Shown here piece by piece: positions 1,557 to 13,163 of a stretch of 13,420 nucleotides of DNA. Positions within the stretch are counted from its first letter, which is position 1; every line of letters starts with the position of its first letter. Position numbers and translations under genes: made by a program. Below the pieces are notes generated by a model. It had not been told where the DNA came from and made no database searches. It saw only the letters and a list, made by a program, of their open reading frames with translations. This DNA comes from a virus (taxonomy: Duplodnaviria; Heunggongvirae; Uroviricota; Caudoviricetes): IMG/VR virus record IMGVR_UViG_2913177423_000002, one strand, 5' to 3'.

Positions 1557-1754
1557 AGATTGTGGTGCTTTTTGTGGTAGTTACCCACTTACGCACTTTG
1601 TATTGCTATGCCAGCAGTTAGCTTCTACTGTAAAACTATTCATGCAGCAAACCTGCACTTCACCACAAAATGGGATTCAATACCCACAACTCTATCTGCA
1701 TCTCTACTCAGGCATCAGCCTTCTTCGTTATCGTATACAGACAAGCTATGAATT

Positions 1755-1970
1755 TTAATCAGTAATAATGACATTTGCTGCTGCAGGACCTTTAGCACCA
1801 CTCTCTACAGAGAAGGTAACCTTTTGGCCTTCAAATAAGGTTCGATAATTATCATTCTGAATTGCAGAAAAATGCACAAACACATCTTTACTACCATCAA
1901 CAGGAGAAATAAAGCCAAAACCTTTATCAGCGTTAAACCATTTTACTAAACCAGTCATTTTATTTGACAT
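1755..1970 (-). CDS. cspB: Cold-shock protein, CspA family (CspB-like)
   Basis: 71 aa [38 protein letters not shown]...; RNP1 motif KGFGFI and RNP2-like VFVHF of the cold-shock domain. Confidence 0.93.
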
Positions 1971-2165
1971 TCTACATTCCTTAACTTGAGCCTTTCGGCA
2001 TAAATGATTTGTATAACAGAAACGACTTCGTACTTAATTGGAGAGACTCAAAGAAGGAATAAGTGAATAACACCTGAAATGAGAACTGCTTTAGTAAACT
2101 ACTTCGTATATCGTCTGTTCTTCAAACCGACGCAGCCATTAACGCATAGTTGTACACTTGGAAGC
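1971..2165 (-). promoter_or_regulatory. cspA-type promoter and long 5' UTR with cold-box-like element for the cspB-like gene
   Basis: About 155 nt between putative start and ATG. Minus strand reads GTTAAT...GGTTTGAAGAACAGACG (compare cspA CTTAAT...ACGGTTTGACGTACAGAC from memory) and contains GCCGAAAGGC near the start codon as in the cspA leader. Confidence 0.5.
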
Positions 2166-6044: not shown

Positions 6045-6650
6045 CTACTGCTCAGAACGCAAATGCGGCAATACTCGGCTCCACTTATCATCCTGCCACG
6101 GCTGGAATCTTACATGTGCCGTTTCTCTGGCAAGGATTTCGCGCGCCTTATGTAGTATCTGGGGATATTCTTGCTCAATAGAAGTAAAGCGACCGGCTTC
6201 GCGATGCTCCGCAACCTGAAGAAGTGGAGTAACATTCTGGCAGGCGGTTAACATCACATCCCCTGCTCGCCATAACCAGGCGAGTGTGCAAAGTTCGTTA
6301 TCAGTGAATTGTTTTGTGATTGGGGATTGTTGAACTTCTCGATCGAGAATATCCAGAACCCAGCGGCGGAATTCTTTGGCTACAGGAGTGCGGGCGAACA
6401 TAGCGATCAAATGGGCACCACGGAGGGAGAAAATGCGTATTGTTTTCTGGTAGTTCCCTGAGACACTCAAATTGAGGGTCTCAGTCATATCTGCCCTAAA
6501 TTCATCGGAATTTCGATCGTAGATCTGAGTTACGGCATCAGATTTTTTATATCCGAGAGCTTGAGCAATCTCAACGGCAGTAAGCCAGATACTGTTGTTG
6601 TGTTTAACAGGATGGAATTTTGTTTGATGAAAGACTAGTTGTGTGCTCAT
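6045..6650 (-). CDS. Bro-N/KilA-N-like domain protein (antirepressor/Roi-like)
   Basis: 201 aa; N-terminal region LVFHQTKFHPVKHNNSIWLTAVEIAQALGYKKSDAV resembles the Bro-N DNA-binding domain pattern. Family assignment from pattern memory only. Confidence 0.6.
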   Translation of the reverse strand: MSTQLVFHQTKFHPVKHNNSIWLTAVEIAQALGYKKSDAVTQIYDRNSDEFRADMTETLNLSVSGNYQKTIRIFSLRGAHLIAMFARTPVAKEFRRWVLDILDREVQQSPITKQFTDNELCTLAWLWRAGDVMLTACQNVTPLLQVAEHREAGRFTSIEQEYPQILHKAREILARETAHVRFQPWQDDKWSRVLPHLRSEQ

Positions 6651-6807
6651 GATGATTACCTATAAATCAAGTTAACCACCACCGCTGACGCCAATCAGTT
6701 TGGTGGTGAGACATGTAGGGTTGGCGTAACCGGGGTAATCAACCGGCCCGACCGAAGTCGGCCCTACACGCCCCACCATAATTCAGATGTGCGTATGCTT
6801 ACGACAA

Positions 6808-6830
6808 TAAAAAACACGCTCGCGGCGTGT
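6808..6830 (-). terminator. Rho-independent terminator downstream of the ninB-like gene
   Basis: Stem acacgc/gcgtgt (6814-6830) with 5 nt loop; on the minus strand it is followed by TTTTTT (plus-strand A-run 6808-6813). Confidence 0.5.
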
Positions 6831-6925
6831 AGTAGTCGCGATTACCTTATCCGGGACGCCAATCCCGTGTGCCGATTTTGCGGCAACGCACAGAATATAG
6901 CGCCAGATATTAGTTATCGTCAACC

Positions 6926-9682: not shown

Positions 9683-9830
9683 GTTTCACTCCTGCTTTGG
9701 CTAGTCTGTAAACACCAACAAGGCGCTCTGCGAACGCCCTGTTATTTGCTGCGGCTACCACTAATCCCTCAGGTGAATCAGGGTGTCGAATCTCTTCTTT
9801 TTCCTGGTATTTCTTACGACGTTTTGTCAT
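9669..9830 (-). CDS. Small basic hypothetical protein (53 aa) between cII and the initiator gene
   Basis: ATG at 9830 with AGGAG RBS; [53 protein letters not shown]; overlaps the initiator start by 14 nt. No family recognised. Confidence 0.35.
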   Translation of the reverse strand: MTKRRKKYQEKEEIRHPDSPEGLVVAAANNRAFAERLVGVYRLAKAGVKHGRR

Positions 9831-9839
9831 AATTACTCC

Positions 9840-9908
9840 TGTGGATTGAGCCAGTCTTTCTACATCAGGCCTCAAAACTGTTGCAGCAGTCTTGAGGCTT
9901 TTCTTTTG
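9840..9908 (+). ncRNA. oop-like antisense RNA candidate (antisense to the 3' end of cII)
   Basis: Strong plus-strand terminator: stem 9869-9880 / 9887-9898 with one mismatch, loop TTGCAG, then TTTTCTTTT (9899-9907). Possible -10 CATAAT at 9828-9833. Geometry matches lambda oop. The start point is inferred, not seen. Confidence 0.45.
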
Positions 9909-10143
9909 TCAGCACCATGGCTACTTTCTTTGCCAGCTCTGCTAATTCCTCGTCTTCAACACCCCACTCCAGCACAGCCAGAAGCATGGCCATCTTTGGG
10001 ATAAAGCTGTCTTTCCATCGCGAAATTTGCGATTCATTAATCCCTAATGCATCAGCAACCTTTCGCTGACCACGTACAGCAATTCGATTTAGGATATTGC
10101 TTGTGATTGCATTCGCTTTCTTGCGAGTACTTGTAAGTTGCAT
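9865..10143 (-). CDS. cII: CII-like transcriptional activator (P22 C1 analogue)
   Basis: ATG at 10143 with AAGGAAA RBS (track ORF extends in frame upstream to 10230). ...GINESQISRWKDSFIPKMAMLLAVLEWGVEDEE matches the lambda CII helix-turn-helix and tetramerisation region VDKSQISRWKRDWIPKFSMLLAVLEWGV (recalled). Confidence 0.88.
   Translation of the reverse strand: MQLTSTRKKANAITSNILNRIAVRGQRKVADALGINESQISRWKDSFIPKMAMLLAVLEWGVEDEELAELAKKVAMVLTKEKPQDCCNSFEA
10097..10110 (+). promoter_or_regulatory. TTGC-N6-TTGC motif: candidate CII-binding site of a PRE-like establishment promoter
   Basis: Exact TTGCttgtgaTTGC on the plus strand inside the 5' part of cII, oriented toward cro and the repressor gene, as in lambda PRE. 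Confidence 0.5.
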
Positions 10144-10202
10144 ATGTAAGTATTTCCTTAACAAATAAGAAGTTATACGCACCAACTGATGCGCGTTGTA
10201 TT

Positions 10203-10244
10203 CCCGCATTTCGGCGGGAATGAGGACCATGACTGTTAAAGAGC
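10203..10244 (-). promoter_or_regulatory. nutR-like site (boxA GCTCTTTAA plus boxB hairpin)
   Basis: Minus strand reads TGCTCTTTAACA, a 14 nt spacer, then TCCCGCCGAAATGCGGGAA (5 bp stem, purine-rich loop). An identical boxA and boxB pair occurs downstream of PL. Located between cro and cII. Confidence 0.7.
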
Positions 10245-10251
10245 AATTTGC

Positions 10252-10437
10252 TTATGCCGCTTTGCGGTAAGCGCTTTCTTGATACTTCAGGGCGCCAGCT
10301 GTAACGACTTCCAGTCGATAGGCGTCTTTCTCTGGGATGACTTCCTTCCACTGAGAGACTGCTGCATCGCTAATGCCTAACGCTTTAGCTACCGCACGCT
10401 GGGTTCCGAAGTGGTCGATAACATCTTTCTTGTACAT
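10252..10437 (-). CDS. cro: Cro repressor (P22 Cro-like)
   Basis: 61 aa MYKKDVIDHFGTQRAVAKALGISDAAVSQWK... with helix-turn-helix; divergent from the repressor gene across the operator region; GGAG RBS. Confidence 0.9.
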   Translation of the reverse strand: MYKKDVIDHFGTQRAVAKALGISDAAVSQWKEVIPEKDAYRLEVVTAGALKYQESAYRKAA

Positions 10438-10451
10438 AGACTCGCTCCGAA

Positions 10452-10517
10452 ATTAAAGAACACTTAAATTATCTATCAAAGGAATCTTAAGTCAAGTTTA
10501 TTTAAGATGTCTTAACT
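10452..10517. promoter_or_regulatory. OR operator triplet with divergent PR and PRM
   Basis: Three 18 bp sites fitting ANTNAAGNNNNCTTNANT: 10452-10469 ATTAAAGAACACTTAAAT, 10475-10492 ATCAAAGGAATCTTAAGT, 10500-10517 ATTTAAGATGTCTTAACT. PR on minus: -35 TTGACT (10495-10490), 16 bp spacer, -10 GATAAT (10473-10468). The repressor ATG abuts the last operator, so the PRM transcript is near-leaderless. Confidence 0.75.
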
Positions 10518-11168
10518 ATGAATACACAACTGATGGGTGAGCGTATTCGCGCTCGCAGAAAAGAACTCAAGATTAGGCAGGCTGCCCTTGGCAAGATGGT
10601 TGGCGTGTCTAATGTTGCTATTTCCCAATGGGAGCGTTCTGAAACTGAGCCCAATGGCGAAAACCTATTGGCCTTAGCCAAGGCTTTGCAGTGCTCCCCT
10701 GATTACTTGTTGAAAGGAGAAGATAGTCTTTCAAACATTGCCTATCACAGCAGGCATGATCCAAGAGGTTCGTATCCTCTAATTAGTTGGGTAAGCGCAG
10801 GATGTTGGATGGAAGCTGTAGAGCCATATCATAAGCGTGCAATAGATAACTGGTACGATACAACCGTAGATTGTTCAGAAGATTCGTTTTGGCTGGACGT
10901 AAAGGGTGATTCGATGACGGCTCCAGCCGGTCTTAGCATCCCGGAAGGGATGATAATACTAGTCGATCCTGAAGTAGAACCTCGTAATGGGAAGCTGGTA
11001 GTGGCAAAGCTCGAAGGAGAAAACGAGGCAACTTTCAAGAAGTTAGTTATTGATGCTGGCAGAAGGTTTCTAAAACCACTTAACCCACAATATCCGATGA
11101 TTGAGATCAACGGGAACTGCAAAATCATCGGTGTAGTTGTCGATGCAAAAATAGCAAACCTTCCATAA
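10518..11168 (+). CDS. c2: Prophage repressor, P22 C2 type (HTH plus S24 LexA-like autocleavage domain)
   Basis: 216 aa; N-terminal helix-turn-helix (QAALGKMVGVSNVAISQWERSE), Ala-Gly cleavage site and GDSM serine motif with downstream lysine. Near-identical to P22 C2 as I recall it. Confidence 0.95.
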   Translation: MNTQLMGERIRARRKELKIRQAALGKMVGVSNVAISQWERSETEPNGENLLALAKALQCSPDYLLKGEDSLSNIAYHSRHDPRGSYPLISWVSAGCWMEAVEPYHKRAIDNWYDTTVDCSEDSFWLDVKGDSMTAPAGLSIPEGMIILVDPEVEPRNGKLVVAKLEGENEATFKKLVIDAGRRFLKPLNPQYPMIEINGNCKIIGVVVDAKIANLP

Positions 11169-11190
11169 GGGGCATTCGCCCCTTTTTTCT
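11167..11190 (+). terminator. Rho-independent terminator after the repressor gene
   Basis: Stem ggggc/gcccc (11169-11182), loop ATTC, then TTTTTT (11183-11188). Confidence 0.7.
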
Positions 11191-11231
11191 TTCCTTTAAA
11201 AATCAAAGCAAAACTTAAACTTCGCAATAAA

Positions 11232-11285
11232 ATTTAAGTTTTCTTCAAAAATACCCTTGACCACCAATTAAAGAAATCTTAAATT
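11232..11285 (+). promoter_or_regulatory. OL operators and PL promoter
   Basis: Operator-consensus sites at 11232-11249 (ATTTAAGTTTTCTTCAAA) and 11267-11284 (ATTAAAGAAATCTTAAAT); -35 TTGACC (11257-11262), 17 bp spacer, -10 TAAATT (11280-11285) overlapping the second operator. Confidence 0.6.
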
Positions 11286-11331
11286 TAAGTCATCAGCAGG
11301 ACGCTGGTAGCCAAACGGAACAGATTGGCAG

Positions 11332-11371
11332 GCTCTTTAACATTGATGGGATTGTCCCGCCGAAATGCGGG
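11332..11371 (+). promoter_or_regulatory. nutL-like site (boxA GCTCTTTAA plus boxB hairpin)
   Basis: GGCTCTTTAACA (boxA 11332-11340), spacer, CCCGCCGAAATGCGGG (boxB 11356-11371); boxA and boxB are identical to the nutR copy. Confidence 0.7.
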
Positions 11372-11394
11372 AACCAAAGAGTAGTTGGCTTTGG

Positions 11395-11460
11395 GGTGAC
11401 GTAAAGTGCAGCCGCGCAACAGCATCAGGGAGTTAACCTCCCTCCCCCAGTTACGTCACC
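11395..11460 (+). promoter_or_regulatory. Structured N-leader element (long-range inverted repeat enclosing a hairpin); possible RNase III-type processing or translational control site
   Basis: GGTGACGTAA (11395-11404) pairs with TTACGTCACC (11451-11460); inner hairpin GGGAG-TTAAC-CTCCC (11428-11442); ends 16 nt before the N-like RBS GGAGG. Confidence 0.4.
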
Positions 11461-11486
11461 GCTAAAGTCAATCATCGGAGGTCAAC

Positions 11487-11792
11487 ATGACAGTAGTCAT
11501 TACATATCTGGCTGACGATAACGCCAGAAATCGCCGCAGAGCACGCAGACAGGCTCAACGTGAACAGGCAATGAAAGAACAGAGACTGGCGCGAAAGATT
11601 GCGCTAAAACTCTCTGGTTGCGTCAGAGCAGACAAAGCAGCATCACTTGGCAGCCTTCTCTGCAAGAAAGTAGATGAAGTCGAGAAAAAAAATAGGAGGG
11701 TTTACTACAAGGATTTAAACCCATTAGGAAACAAGATACATGCAGTTCAAAGAATAAGATTGTATAGTAAACCACCGTACGGTGCTTATTGA
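11487..11792 (+). CDS. N: N-like transcription antiterminator with arginine-rich motif
   Basis: 101 aa; N-terminal ARM NARNRRRARRQAQREQ resembles lambda N QTRRRERRAEKQAQ; first gene after PL and nutL; GGAGG RBS. Confidence 0.75.
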   Translation: MTVVITYLADDNARNRRRARRQAQREQAMKEQRLARKIALKLSGCVRADKAASLGSLLCKKVDEVEKKNRRVYYKDLNPLGNKIHAVQRIRLYSKPPYGAY

Positions 11793-11794
11793 GT

Positions 11795-12133
11795 ATGCTT
11801 ATGGTGAAAAAGACTATCTATGTTAACCCTAACTGCGGACAAAACAGGAAAGTATTTGATAGAGGTCTTACACCTCAAGACAGAAGGAGAATAACGAGAT
11901 GGGAAAAGAGAATGGCATATGCATTAGAAAACGGTGTAACACCTGGATTTAATGCTATAGATGACGGTCCGGAATATAAGATTAATGAAGACCCAATGGA
12001 CAAAGTTGACAAAGCATTAGCAACACCATTTCCTCGAGATGTAGAAAAAATTGCAGATGAAAAATATGAGGATGTAATGCACAGAGTTGTTAACCACGCT
12101 CACCAACGAAATCCAAATAAAAAATGGTCATAG
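11795..12133 (+). CDS. Hypothetical early-left protein (about 112 aa)
   Basis: Track ORF 11789-12133 (TTG); ATG at 11795 is more likely, immediately after the N-like stop. No family recognised. Confidence 0.5.
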   Translation: MLMVKKTIYVNPNCGQNRKVFDRGLTPQDRRRITRWEKRMAYALENGVTPGFNAIDDGPEYKINEDPMDKVDKALATPFPRDVEKIADEKYEDVMHRVVNHAHQRNPNKKWS

Positions 12134-12156
12134 CCCACTTCGGTGGGTTTATTATT
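12134..12156 (+). terminator. Terminator-like hairpin with UUCG tetraloop (tL1-like)
   Basis: cccac-TTCG-gtggg (12134-12147) followed by TTTATTATT. Confidence 0.5.
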
Positions 12157-12266
12157 GTCCGAACTAACCGAATTTATTACAGCAAGCCACGCAGTGAAAT
12201 GGGTGTAACTTGTGTTGGTCGCCAGAAAATGAAATTAGGCAGCAAACCACTTATTTAAGGTGAGAT

Positions 12267-12353
12267 ATGGAAGAAGAATTTGAAGAGTTCGAAGAGCATC
12301 CGCAGGATGTGATGGAGCAATACCAGGACTATCCGTATGACTACGACTATTGA
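12267..12353 (+). CDS. Very acidic 28 aa peptide (Glu/Asp/Tyr-rich)
   Basis: ATG at 12267 preceded by AAGGTGAG; MEEEFEEFEEHPQDVMEQYQDYPYDYDY. Below the ORF-track cut-off; overlaps the next ORF start by 17 nt. Confidence 0.35.
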   Translation: MEEEFEEFEEHPQDVMEQYQDYPYDYDY

Positions 12354-12537
12354 TAAAAATCAATGGTGTGGACAATTCAAACGATGCAATGGATGCAAGC
12401 TGCAATCGGAATGCATGGTTAAGCCTGAAGAAATGTTTCCTGTAATGGAAGATGGGAAATATGTCGATAAATGGGCAATACGAACGACGGCAATGATTGC
12501 CAGAGAACTTGGTAAACAGAATAACAATGCTGCCTGA
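12337..12537 (+). CDS. Small Cys-containing hypothetical protein (66 aa)
   Basis: Track ORF; CGQFKRCNGCKLQSEC cluster near the N-terminus. No family recognised. Confidence 0.45.
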   Translation: MTTTIDKNQWCGQFKRCNGCKLQSECMVKPEEMFPVMEDGKYVDKWAIRTTAMIARELGKQNNNAA

Positions 12538-12673
12538 TGGTGGCCTTTATTTTTGGCATAAACAACAGAATAAACACAGCACTGTGTATTCATTCCAACG
12601 AGTGAATACACGGAGCAATGTCGCTCGTAACTAAACAGGAGCCGACTTGTTCTGATTATTGGAAATCTTCTTT

Positions 12674-12699
12674 GCCCTCCAGTGTGAGGGCGATTTTTT
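12674..12699 (+). terminator. Rho-independent terminator
   Basis: Stem gccctc/gagggc (12674-12691), loop CAGTGT, then TTTTTT (12694-12699). Confidence 0.6.
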
Positions 12700-12719
12700 A
12701 TCTATGAGGATATGAATAG

Positions 12720-13088
12720 ATGTCAAACATCAAAAAATACATCATTGATTACGACTGGAAAGCATCAATAGAAATTGAAATCGACCATGACGTAATGACA
12801 GAGGAAAAACTTCACCAGATTAATAATTTCTGGTCAGACTCTGAATACCGACTCAATAAACACGGCGCTGTATTAAATGCTGTATTAATCATGCTGGCGC
12901 AACATGCTCTGCTTATAGCAATTTCGAAAGACTTAAATGCATATGGTGTTGTTTGTGAGTTCGACTGGGATGATGGAAATGGTCAGGAAGGATGGCCTCC
13001 AATGGATGGTAGTGAAGGAATAAGAATTACCGATATCGATACATCAGGAATATTTGATTCAGATGATATGACTATCAAAGCCGCCTGA
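12720..13088 (+). CDS. Acidic hypothetical protein (122 aa)
   Basis: Track ORF with GAGGA RBS; C-terminal third rich in Asp/Glu/Gly (WDDGNGQEGWPPMDGSEGIRITDIDTSGIFDSDDM). No family recognised. Confidence 0.6.
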   Translation: MSNIKKYIIDYDWKASIEIEIDHDVMTEEKLHQINNFWSDSEYRLNKHGAVLNAVLIMLAQHALLIAISKDLNAYGVVCEFDWDDGNGQEGWPPMDGSEGIRITDIDTSGIFDSDDMTIKAA

Positions 13089-13163
13089 GCGCGGCTTTAC
13101 CGCATACCAATAATGCTTCACCAGAGGCATTTTCGTTATGCAATCAAATATAAGGAGTTACCC

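Follow-up and report, generated by a model that had tools for sequence, protein, structure and literature searches.

The stretch of DNA analysed here (the window: 13,420 nt of a Caudoviricetes virus, IMG/VR record IMGVR_UViG_2913177423_000002) contains what is, with a probability of roughly 0.87, the core of the early control region of a lambdoid Escherichia coli prophage with a standard N/nut antitermination system of HK620 specificity. The module is an ordinary lambdoid N/nut system of the HK620 type, joined to a phage 21/P22-type immunity region by routine mosaic recombination. Its exact nut sequences are already known, having been annotated in GenBank since 2001. Binding of the arginine-rich motif (ARM) of N to boxB, dependence on Nus factors and read-through of terminators are predicted from sequence. 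The features of the region are collected in Table 1.

Table 1. Features of the early regulatory region (positions are those of the window).
Feature	Position	Strand	Basis and remarks
cII/C1-type activator gene, downstream of nutR	9865..10146	-	Pfam Phage_CII, E = 2e-44
nutR boxB hairpin AUUCCCGC-CGAAAU-GCGGGAAU	10200..10221	-	8 bp stem, 6-nt loop; identical to hairpin in annotated HK620 nutR
nutR boxA GCTCTTTAACA	10234..10244	-	exact; identical to annotated phage 21 boxA-R and to boxA within HK620 nutR
cro, 61 aa, P22/phage 21 type	10252..10437	-	Pfam P22_Cro, E = 8.7e-28
PR-like promoter TTGACT-16-GATAAT	10468..10495	-	promoter scan 10/12; drives cro, nutR, cII
Prophage repressor, 216 aa, imm21/P22 C2 type	10518..11168	+	Pfam HTH_3 and Peptidase_S24
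Terminator-like hairpin after repressor gene	11167-11184		terminator scan
PL-like promoter TTGACC-17-TAAATT	11257..11285	+	promoter scan; overlaps operator-like repeats D2, D3, I4, I6
nutL boxA GCTCTTTAACA	11332..11342	+	exact; identical to annotated phage 21 boxA-L
nutL boxB hairpin UCCCGC-CGAAAU-GCGGGA	11355..11372	+	6 bp stem, 6-nt loop
Long helix in N leader, nutL to N ribosome-binding site	11384..11470	+	inverted repeat I7
N antiterminator, 101 aa	11487..11792	+	PHROG 271 'anti-termination protein N-like', E = 1.7e-29
N ARM, residues 12-29	11520-11573	+
nun promoter in N 3' end	-35 11740-11745, -10 11763-11768		homology to annotated phage O276 nun promoter
nun, 110 aa, HK022-type transcription-arrest exclusion factor (predicted)	11801..12133	+	PHROG 5632, E = 1e-64
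Terminator-like hairpin after nun	12132-12149		terminator scan
Orphan remnant, phage 21-type N C-terminus (IYYSKPRSEMGVTCVGRQKMKLGSKPLI*)	12166..12258	+	displaced by nun cassette

The two nut sites occupy the canonical positions, nutR between cro and cII and nutL between PL and N, and each reads 5'-boxA-12 nt-boxB-3' on its own transcript. Allowing up to three mismatches, the boxB 19-mer TCCCGCCGAAATGCGGGAA occurs exactly twice in the window, at 10201-10219 (-) and 11355-11373 (+), where 0.01 matches are expected by chance and two were seen in none of 200 shuffles. The boxA 11-mer GCTCTTTAACA, which is of the NusB/NusE-binding type as judged by its identity to the annotated phage 21 boxAs, and which probably matches the rrn boxA consensus, likewise has exactly two mismatch-free occurrences (chance expectation 0.01; 0/200 shuffles); at two mismatches its count is not significant, but both actual sites are exact. 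The boxA and boxB pairs lie in mirror orientation on either side of the cro/repressor pair, and a repeat search separately lists the two motifs as inverted repeats around the immunity genes (I2, I5). A short, stable boxB hairpin is present at both sites. At nutL it folds at -10.5 kcal/mol (6 bp, z -2.7) and at nutR at -12.5 kcal/mol (8 bp, z -4.0), each with the 6-nt loop CGAAAU. A pairing of boxA with a downstream AAAGAG in the nutL fold was dropped (z -1.1, not significant). When the whole window was searched against Rfam (E <= 1), no family fell on the nut sites, the matches elsewhere being to the cspA thermoregulator, C4 antisense RNA and isrK.

The original prediction of a matched nutR/nutL pair is thus borne out: the motifs are exact, paired and non-random, and the hairpins fold as predicted. 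The identity holds for boxA and boxB but not for the rest of the sites. The spacers are unlike, TTGATGGGATTG at nutL against GTCATGGTCCTC at nutR, the nutR stem is 2 bp longer than that of nutL, and the interval 10203-11371 first assigned to the pair misses 2 nt of each hairpin. That boxB differs from that of lambda was also correctly seen, the loop being CGAAAU rather than the lambda pentaloop GAAAA/GAAGA.

Between the two sites lies an immunity region that had been described as P22-type. There is a resemblance, with 93.1% identity of the repressor to P22 C2 and 95.1% of Cro to P22 Cro; imm21 is the more exact assignment, as phage 21 cI matches the repressor at 98.6% identity and phage 21 Cro its counterpart here at 96.7%, with 91% DNA identity to phage 21 across window positions 10232-11349. 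The PR-like promoter corresponds in position to the annotated phage 21 PR/OR region, and the PL-like promoter is collinear with the annotated phage 21 pL/OL.

The N open reading frame is intact, with a GGAGG 7 nt upstream of the ATG providing a good ribosome-binding site. Residues 1-64 are of the HK620 type, with 92-97% identity (tblastn) to N of HK620, HK140, mEp213 and HK630, and 39 of the first 40 residues (97.5%) are identical to those of HK620 N. Residues 65-101 form an alternative C-terminus that accompanies the nun cassette. Pfam and NCBIfam hold no model for N or Nun, PHROGs alone recognising both, and a PDB sequence search with N found no relative, the top match being spurious (E = 0.35). 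The motif picked out in the original prediction, ARNRRRARRQAQ, corresponds to residues 13-24; it had been considered close to that of lambda N, a likeness that proves weak. In ungapped register the ARM shares 7 of 21 positions with lambda, 6 of 21 with P22 and 5 of 21 with phi21, and the overlap is the shared generic A-x-x-R-x-x-x-R-R core only. The 'QAQ' of the ARM is three residues out of register with that of lambda, and Ala stands at the position of lambda Trp18. Compared along its full length, the protein is 49% identical to N of phage 21 and 30% to that of lambda, and P22 gp24 reaches 24%. Upstream of the gene, the leader contains a long helix (Table 1), the fold of 11296-11500 reaching -73 kcal/mol (z -3.3), and this structure may have a function.

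HK620 (GenBank AF335538, 2001) provides the closest counterpart of both nut sites. Its annotated 42-nt nutL is identical to window positions 11331-11372, 45 of the 46 nt of its annotated nutR match, and it carries boxB CCCGC-CGAAAU-GCGGG at both. Homology to HK620 falls in two blocks, 9821-10244 (cII to nutR, 93% identity by blastn) and 11285-11678. HK620 differs in having a 434/L-like cI immunity, with about 1.63 kb between the boxAs compared with 1.09 kb here, and an N that ends in a P22/H-19B-type C-terminus (…YAAGYRKSKQLTAR), with no nun. The suggestion of a new hybrid specificity therefore fails, since the ARM, like nutL and nutR, is that of HK620 and the combination already exists in the P22-like coliphages CUS-3, N7, IME10, JEP4 and Gally. 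These phages have an imm21-like repressor and cro between the boxAs, together with HK620-type boxBs and ARM, and are about 92% identical in DNA over 87-93% of window positions 10100-11800. They differ in lacking the nun cassette and in having an N with a phage 21-type C-terminus, because of which full-length N identity is about 75%.

Phage 21 shares the immunity region and an identical boxA, and its N is collinear without indels, with the middle region LARKIALKLSGCVRADKAASLGS conserved. Its boxB loop is likewise of 6 nt, and the stem is of 7 bp. However, its ARM is GTAKSRYKARRAELIAERR, its boxB loop is CUAACC and its stems are different; homology to phage 21 breaks off within each nut site, in the interval from boxA to boxB. 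The complementary case is mEp235, which shares the immunity type (the matching DNA is 90% identical), boxA, N C-terminus and nun, but has the phi21 ARM and phi21 boxBs at both sites. Lambda has the same overall architecture, an RRR-x-RR motif and a GAAA within the loop, but a pentaloop on a U-A closing pair, a 5-bp stem and a different boxA (CGCTCTTA), and its Trp18, Lys14 and Gln15 are not conserved here. Neither the loop nor the ARM is of the lambda, P22 gp24 or phage 21 specificity; the ARM sequence and the boxB at both sites are those of the HK620 group.

The ARM and boxBs co-vary strictly across a swappable immunity cassette. Among 83 loci with both nut sites, 29 combine the HK620-type ARM with CGAAAT at both and 54 the phi21-type ARM with CTAAYM at both, although, as the many IMG/VR loci are near-identical prophages, few independent events are represented (three immunity clusters for the HK620 type). 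No mixed case was found among the 83, even within shared immunity types, and two immunity clusters, one of them including mEp235, each contain both ARM types. HK620-type loci have exactly one nut site per strand, save one single-match contig, and the ARM present here, MTVVITYLADDNARNRRRARRQAQREQAM, recurs at about 37 other loci. All 58 HK620-type sites examined have the same boxB core, which makes compensatory base-pair covariation within the type impossible to see.

The immunity module is bracketed by the hairpins, which are perfect inverted copies of each other over 19 nt, and the mosaic joints directly adjoin them, features that might also be expected if they were intrinsic terminators, protein operators or recombination boundary sequences rather than sites of N action. 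Such a role is most improbable: neither hairpin is followed by a U-tract or called by the terminator scan, boxA always precedes at a fixed spacing, the joints fall in boxA or the spacer, outside the hairpin, and the hairpins co-vary with the ARM of N and not with the repressor type.

How the HK620-type ARM recognises its boxB is a separate matter. The closest boxB is that of P22 nutR, with core CCGCC-GACAA-CGCGG compared with CCGCC-GAAA-UGCGG here; one C of the loop is lost and one C is replaced by U. P22 gp24 also shares the core N-A-K/R-x-R-R-x-x-R-R and begins MTVITY, where N here begins MTVVITY. In P22, however, the pentaloop GACAA has an extruded third base, which is impossible in a loop one base shorter, and the rest of N is unrelated. 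The loop of P22 nutR, too, has been reported to be closed by a pyrimidine-pyrimidine mismatch, 6C-12C (PMC6023938). These similarities, along with the RRR-x-RR motif shared with lambda, could be explained if the loop were a GAAA tetraloop of the GNRA class closed by a C.U mismatch, adopting the GNRA-like fold of lambda and P22 without an extruded base. The N/nut system would be the same, but its ARM/boxB pair would not be a separate specificity and could show cross-reaction with the N proteins of lambda or P22 and perhaps with Nun. We regard this as rather unlikely, given the Ala at the Trp18 position and the match of only 6-7 of 21 ARM positions to lambda or P22. ViennaRNA moreover predicts a plain hexaloop, although this is because the program cannot score a C.U pair.

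A further argument comes from Nun. The Nun ARM targets lambda boxB, and full-length nun stands beside a lambda-type boxB in 0 of 77 nun loci; the CGAAAU boxB thus seemingly escapes a binder of lambda boxB, with about three loci only combining HK620-type specificity and nun. Tentatively, and with the odds somewhat against it, the HK620-type pair may represent a fourth mode of N-boxB recognition, in which a C.U-closed GAAA tetraloop with no extruded base is bound by an ARM lacking an aromatic or hydrophobic loop-stacking residue. Such a pair would be orthogonal to the N proteins of lambda, P22 and phi21 and to Nun, and this orthogonality would permit Nun to be produced beside the phage's own N.

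A nun moron is inserted within the 3' end of N. The encoded Nun is identical to HK022 Nun at 101 of 110 residues, its differences including S25P, R26Q, A32T, I38M and K43E; as in HK022 Nun, it is about 110 aa long, its ARM lies close to the N-terminus and it ends in an intact HxxxHQRNPNKKWS tail. Beyond the cassette, window positions 12166-13140 are 97% identical to phage 21 (blastn), with homology resuming inside the 3' end of the phage 21 N gene. The insertion has deprived this N of a C-terminus of the phage 21/lambda type. In lambda, the C-terminal region of N contacts RNA polymerase. With residues 65-101 unrelated to that tail, and the original tail orphaned downstream, N might be crippled, in which case the nut sites would be intact but antitermination would be weak at best and the prophage would be defective. 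The exact full-length arrangement is rare, two IMG/VR contigs and, at 99.4%, two of the 5,426 E. coli genomes having it, and this would fit such a loss. Nevertheless, this is improbable. The reading frame and its ribosome-binding site are well preserved, and the same C-terminus is found in more than 45 IMG/VR loci and in the plaque-forming isolates mEp235, mEpX1 and Kapi1, where it is joined to the phi21 ARM. Moreover, three unrelated types of N C-terminus are swapped freely on the common scaffold, and phage L and P22 gp24 have been reported to be interchangeable though their C-termini are unrelated (PMC8022706).

For a functional N of HK620 specificity, the following sequence of events can be proposed. 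Once repression is lifted, PL (about 11257-11285, +) and PR (about 10495-10468, -) would fire divergently, each early transcript carrying a nut RNA composed of boxA GCUCUUUAACA, a 12-nt spacer and the boxB hairpin with loop CGAAAU. N would be translated from the PL transcript, and its N-terminal ARM, NARNRRRARRQAQREQAM, is predicted to bind boxB on the nascent RNA, while boxA would recruit NusB/NusE. RNA-tethered N, together with NusA and NusG, would then render RNA polymerase resistant to downstream terminators: tR1 ahead of cII/O/P on one side, and the hairpins after nun and further left on the other. Terminator-like sites were found downstream of the nut sites by the terminator scan. Specificity would reside in the ARM-boxB pair, inherited as one unit split by the immunity region, and the two conserved boxAs may have served as the recombination joints through which the imm21 cassette was swapped in.

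Of 5,426 complete E. coli genomes, 359 or more contain the segment with nutL and the ARM. In RefSeq (annotated by PGAP for nearly all), the features under the nutL-to-ARM match are labelled only 'hypothetical protein', so that annotation of the N region could be improved. A scan of GTDB species representatives for boxA-gap-boxB found three contigs only, one from an Escherichia sp. and two from metagenome-assembled genomes labelled Bacillales and Segatella, the latter two being probably mis-binned coliphage DNA.

The value of the region as a discovery is small, since this is a textbook system, annotated to the exact sequence as early as 2001 and common among E. coli prophages. The ARM-boxB pairing was nonetheless rightly singled out as worth defining: in the open-access literature searched, no experimental work on the HK620-type ARM-boxB contact was found, and the pair is apparently without a biochemical or structural description there. 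The comparative loci amount to a clean natural swap experiment, with its joints at boxA. The HK620-type pair could join those of lambda, P22 and phi21 in the toolkit of orthogonal peptide-RNA pairs and, if it does represent a fourth recognition mode, would provide a new orthogonal pair for peptide-RNA tethering.

The window is an E. coli prophage, and its positions 10100-12300 are 99.4% identical to E. coli strains CUVM3 and CPww7. The gene layout is that of lambda, P22 and phage 21: nutR is flanked by cro and cII, and nutL follows PL and precedes N (Table). N lies 3' of nutL and has the ribosome-binding site GGAGG; to the left of cII are an O-like and a DnaB-like gene (ORFs, Pfam). The motifs named in the original prediction are indeed present, while the interpretation placed on them is borne out only in part. 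boxA (GCTCTTTAACA, exact matches) and boxB (TCCCGCCGAAATGCGGGAA, even at 3 mismatches) each occur twice, against a chance expectation of 0.01 for either, and a repeat search recovers both as inverted repeats (I2 and I5) on either side of the immunity genes. On the RNA, both sites are ordered 5'-boxA, 12-nt spacer, hairpin. The predicted folds have a 6 bp stem at nutL (-10.5 kcal/mol, z -2.7) and an 8 bp stem at nutR (-12.5 kcal/mol, z -4.0), each with the loop CGAAAU. As the spacers differ, identity between the sites is limited to boxA and boxB. Downstream of nutL and ahead of the ribosome-binding site of N, the N leader contains a long helix at 11384-11470 (fold z -3.3) with a 15-nt inverted repeat, GGGGTGACGTAA / TTACGTCACC, reminiscent of the lambda N leader, which is processed by RNase III.

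Table. Features of the immunity, nut and nun region
Feature	Position	Strand	Evidence
cII	9865-10146	-	Pfam Phage_CII, E = 2e-44
nutR boxB	10201-10219	-	motif match
nutR boxA	10234-10244	-	motif match
cro	10252-10437	-	Pfam P22_Cro, E = 8.7e-28
PR-like promoter	10495-10468	-	promoter-like site
LexA-type repressor	10518-11168	+	ORF and Pfam
PL-like promoter	11257-11285	+	promoter-like site
nutL boxA	11332-11342	+	motif match
nutL boxB	11355-11373	+	motif match
N, 101 aa	11487-11792	+	PHROG 271 'anti-termination protein N-like', E = 1.7e-29
nun	11801-12133		PHROG 5632, E = 1e-64; 101/110 identical to HK022 Nun
Terminator-like hairpin 3' of nun	12132-12149		terminator scan
Orphaned phage 21-type N tail, displaced	12166-12258		downstream of nun cassette

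Residues 1-64 of N are 92-97% identical to HK620, HK140, mEp213, HK630 and ECP1 N (megablast and tblastn, phage genomes), and the first 40 aa share 97.5% identity with HK620 N. The HK620 GenBank record carries the annotations 'nutL; putative N-utilization leftward' and 'nutR'; this nutL (42 nt) is identical to window 11331-11372, and its nutR differs from that of the window at the first base alone. The immunity genes had been described as P22-type and do resemble those of P22 (repressor 93.1%, Cro 95.1%); phage 21 is closer, however (98.6% and 96.7%), and by sequence identity they are of phage 21 type. The same arrangement of imm21-like genes with an HK620 N is found in CUS-3, N7, IME10, JEP4 and Gally (~92% identity), and the nutL+ARM segment is present in 359 of 5,426 complete E. 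coli genomes (coverage at least 80%). Given the HK620 annotation, the phage relatives and this prevalence, both module and combination are known: the element is an N/nut system of HK620 type within an imm21-like mosaic, and the proposed hybrid specificity is not a novelty. No publication on the HK620-type ARM-boxB pair was found in the open-access library searched. Exact HK620-type nut sites also occur on two short GTDB contigs (L091, L092) binned into 'Bacillales bacterium' and 'Segatella copri' MAGs; both contigs are almost certainly DNA of Escherichia prophages that was assigned to the wrong bin.

Nor is the ARM particularly close to that of lambda N, as had been suggested. In a common ungapped register it is identical to lambda at 7/21 positions, to P22 at 6/21 and to phi21 at 5/21, the matches being essentially the shared core A-x-x-R-x-x-x-R-R; the 'QAQ' of the window ARM is 3 residues off register with that of lambda, and the Trp18 position is Ala. 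Phage 21 N is collinear with the window protein throughout (49% identity), compared with 30% for lambda N and 24% for P22 N. Two changes alone separate the window boxB core, CCGCC-GAAA-UGCGG, from the P22 nutR core, CCGCC-GACAA-CGCGG: the window lacks the loop C and has U in place of one C. In the P22 and lambda complexes, the loop C is reportedly the base extruded from a GNRA-like fold; thus the window hairpin may fold as a simple GNRA tetraloop closed by a C.U mismatch. The closing mismatch of P22 nutR is pyrimidine-pyrimidine as well (PMC6023938).

ARM and both hairpins were classified in 80 IMG/VR loci encoding N relatives and in reference phages. Among the 83 loci having both nut sites, many of them near-identical prophages representing few independent events, 29 combine an HK620 ARM with CGAAAT at both nuts, 54 a phi21 ARM with CTAAYM at both, and none is mixed. 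This co-inheritance is evidence that ARM and boxB form a cognate pair. Within the HK620 type the boxB core shows no variation and hence no compensatory changes. Both ARM types occur within each of two immunity clusters; mEp235 shares immunity type, boxA, N C-terminus and nun with the window, but has a phi21 ARM and phi21 boxBs at both sites. The mechanism would be standard N antitermination, with binding, Nus dependence and read-through expected from homology and anatomy.

Phage 21 homology spans 10232-11349 (megablast), both ends falling between boxA and boxB, while HK620 homology covers 9821-10244 (cII to nutR) and 11285-11678 (nutL to N residue 64). These limits divide the specificity unit into two pieces, the nutR boxB and the nutL boxB with the ARM. 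As read from the alignments, the pieces flank a swappable immunity cassette, with the shared boxA sequences as joints.

A segment absent from phage 21 and CUS-3 (11685-12165) holds an alternative N C-terminus, nun and a terminator-like hairpin. This nun 'moron' (promoter, nun, terminator) sits inside the 3' end of N, where the nun promoter annotated in phage O276/HK022 also maps, and the N C-terminus becomes …YYKDLNPLGNKIHAVQRIRLYSKPPYGAY. An HK620-type ARM joined to the nun-associated tail is rare, occurring in 2 complete E. coli genomes and 2 IMG/VR contigs. Five of the 9 residues that distinguish window Nun from HK022 Nun lie in the RNA-binding ARM region (S25P, R26Q, A32T, I38M, K43E), whereas in mEp235, where Nun neighbours a phi21-type N, the HK022 residues are retained at these five positions. 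Drift could account for the changes, as could adaptation to a resident boxB that contains GAAA.

Elsewhere in the window, an Rfam cspA thermoregulator 5' UTR (1739-2131, minus strand; 155.9 bits) precedes a 71-aa ORF (1755-1970, minus strand) that is probably a gene of the cold-shock type, giving this part of the late region the look of a cold-shock moron. In the nin region, at 6699-6900 (minus strand), Rfam matches to C4 antisense RNA (74 bits) and isrK (61 bits), with a c4 a1/b1 target-like site, lie upstream of a 201-aa ORF (6045-6650). The arrangement resembles an antirepressor cassette of P1/Gifsy type under antisense control.

The Nun C-terminal tail blocks RNA polymerase. In lambda-type N/boxB loci (L164 2206-3087; also L165-L168), a 293-aa ORF of unassigned function, without a Pfam match, ends in this tail (…NPVNHAHQRNPNKKWS) after an unrelated N-terminal body. 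Its family is probably PHROG 12139 (unknown function), a profile of 289 positions, given that residues 84-110 of window Nun match the end of this profile. The ORF may encode a different exclusion protein that has taken over the arrest tail of Nun. In HK022 (L088 1740-1917), an unannotated remnant of the alternative N C-terminus, …VVRKNRSIYCKDSNPLGNKIHAVQKIKLYSKLPYGAYW, lies just after putL and before nun, which suggests descent from an N+Nun phage whose N front half and nut sites were exchanged for put. Among 77 nun loci, 59 have a phi21-type ARM (in 56 of these, both nut sites have phi21 boxBs), 5 have put, 2 an HK620-type N/nut and none a lambda-type boxB. Such a distribution is in line with what would be expected if any phage carrying Nun needs a boxB of its own that escapes it.
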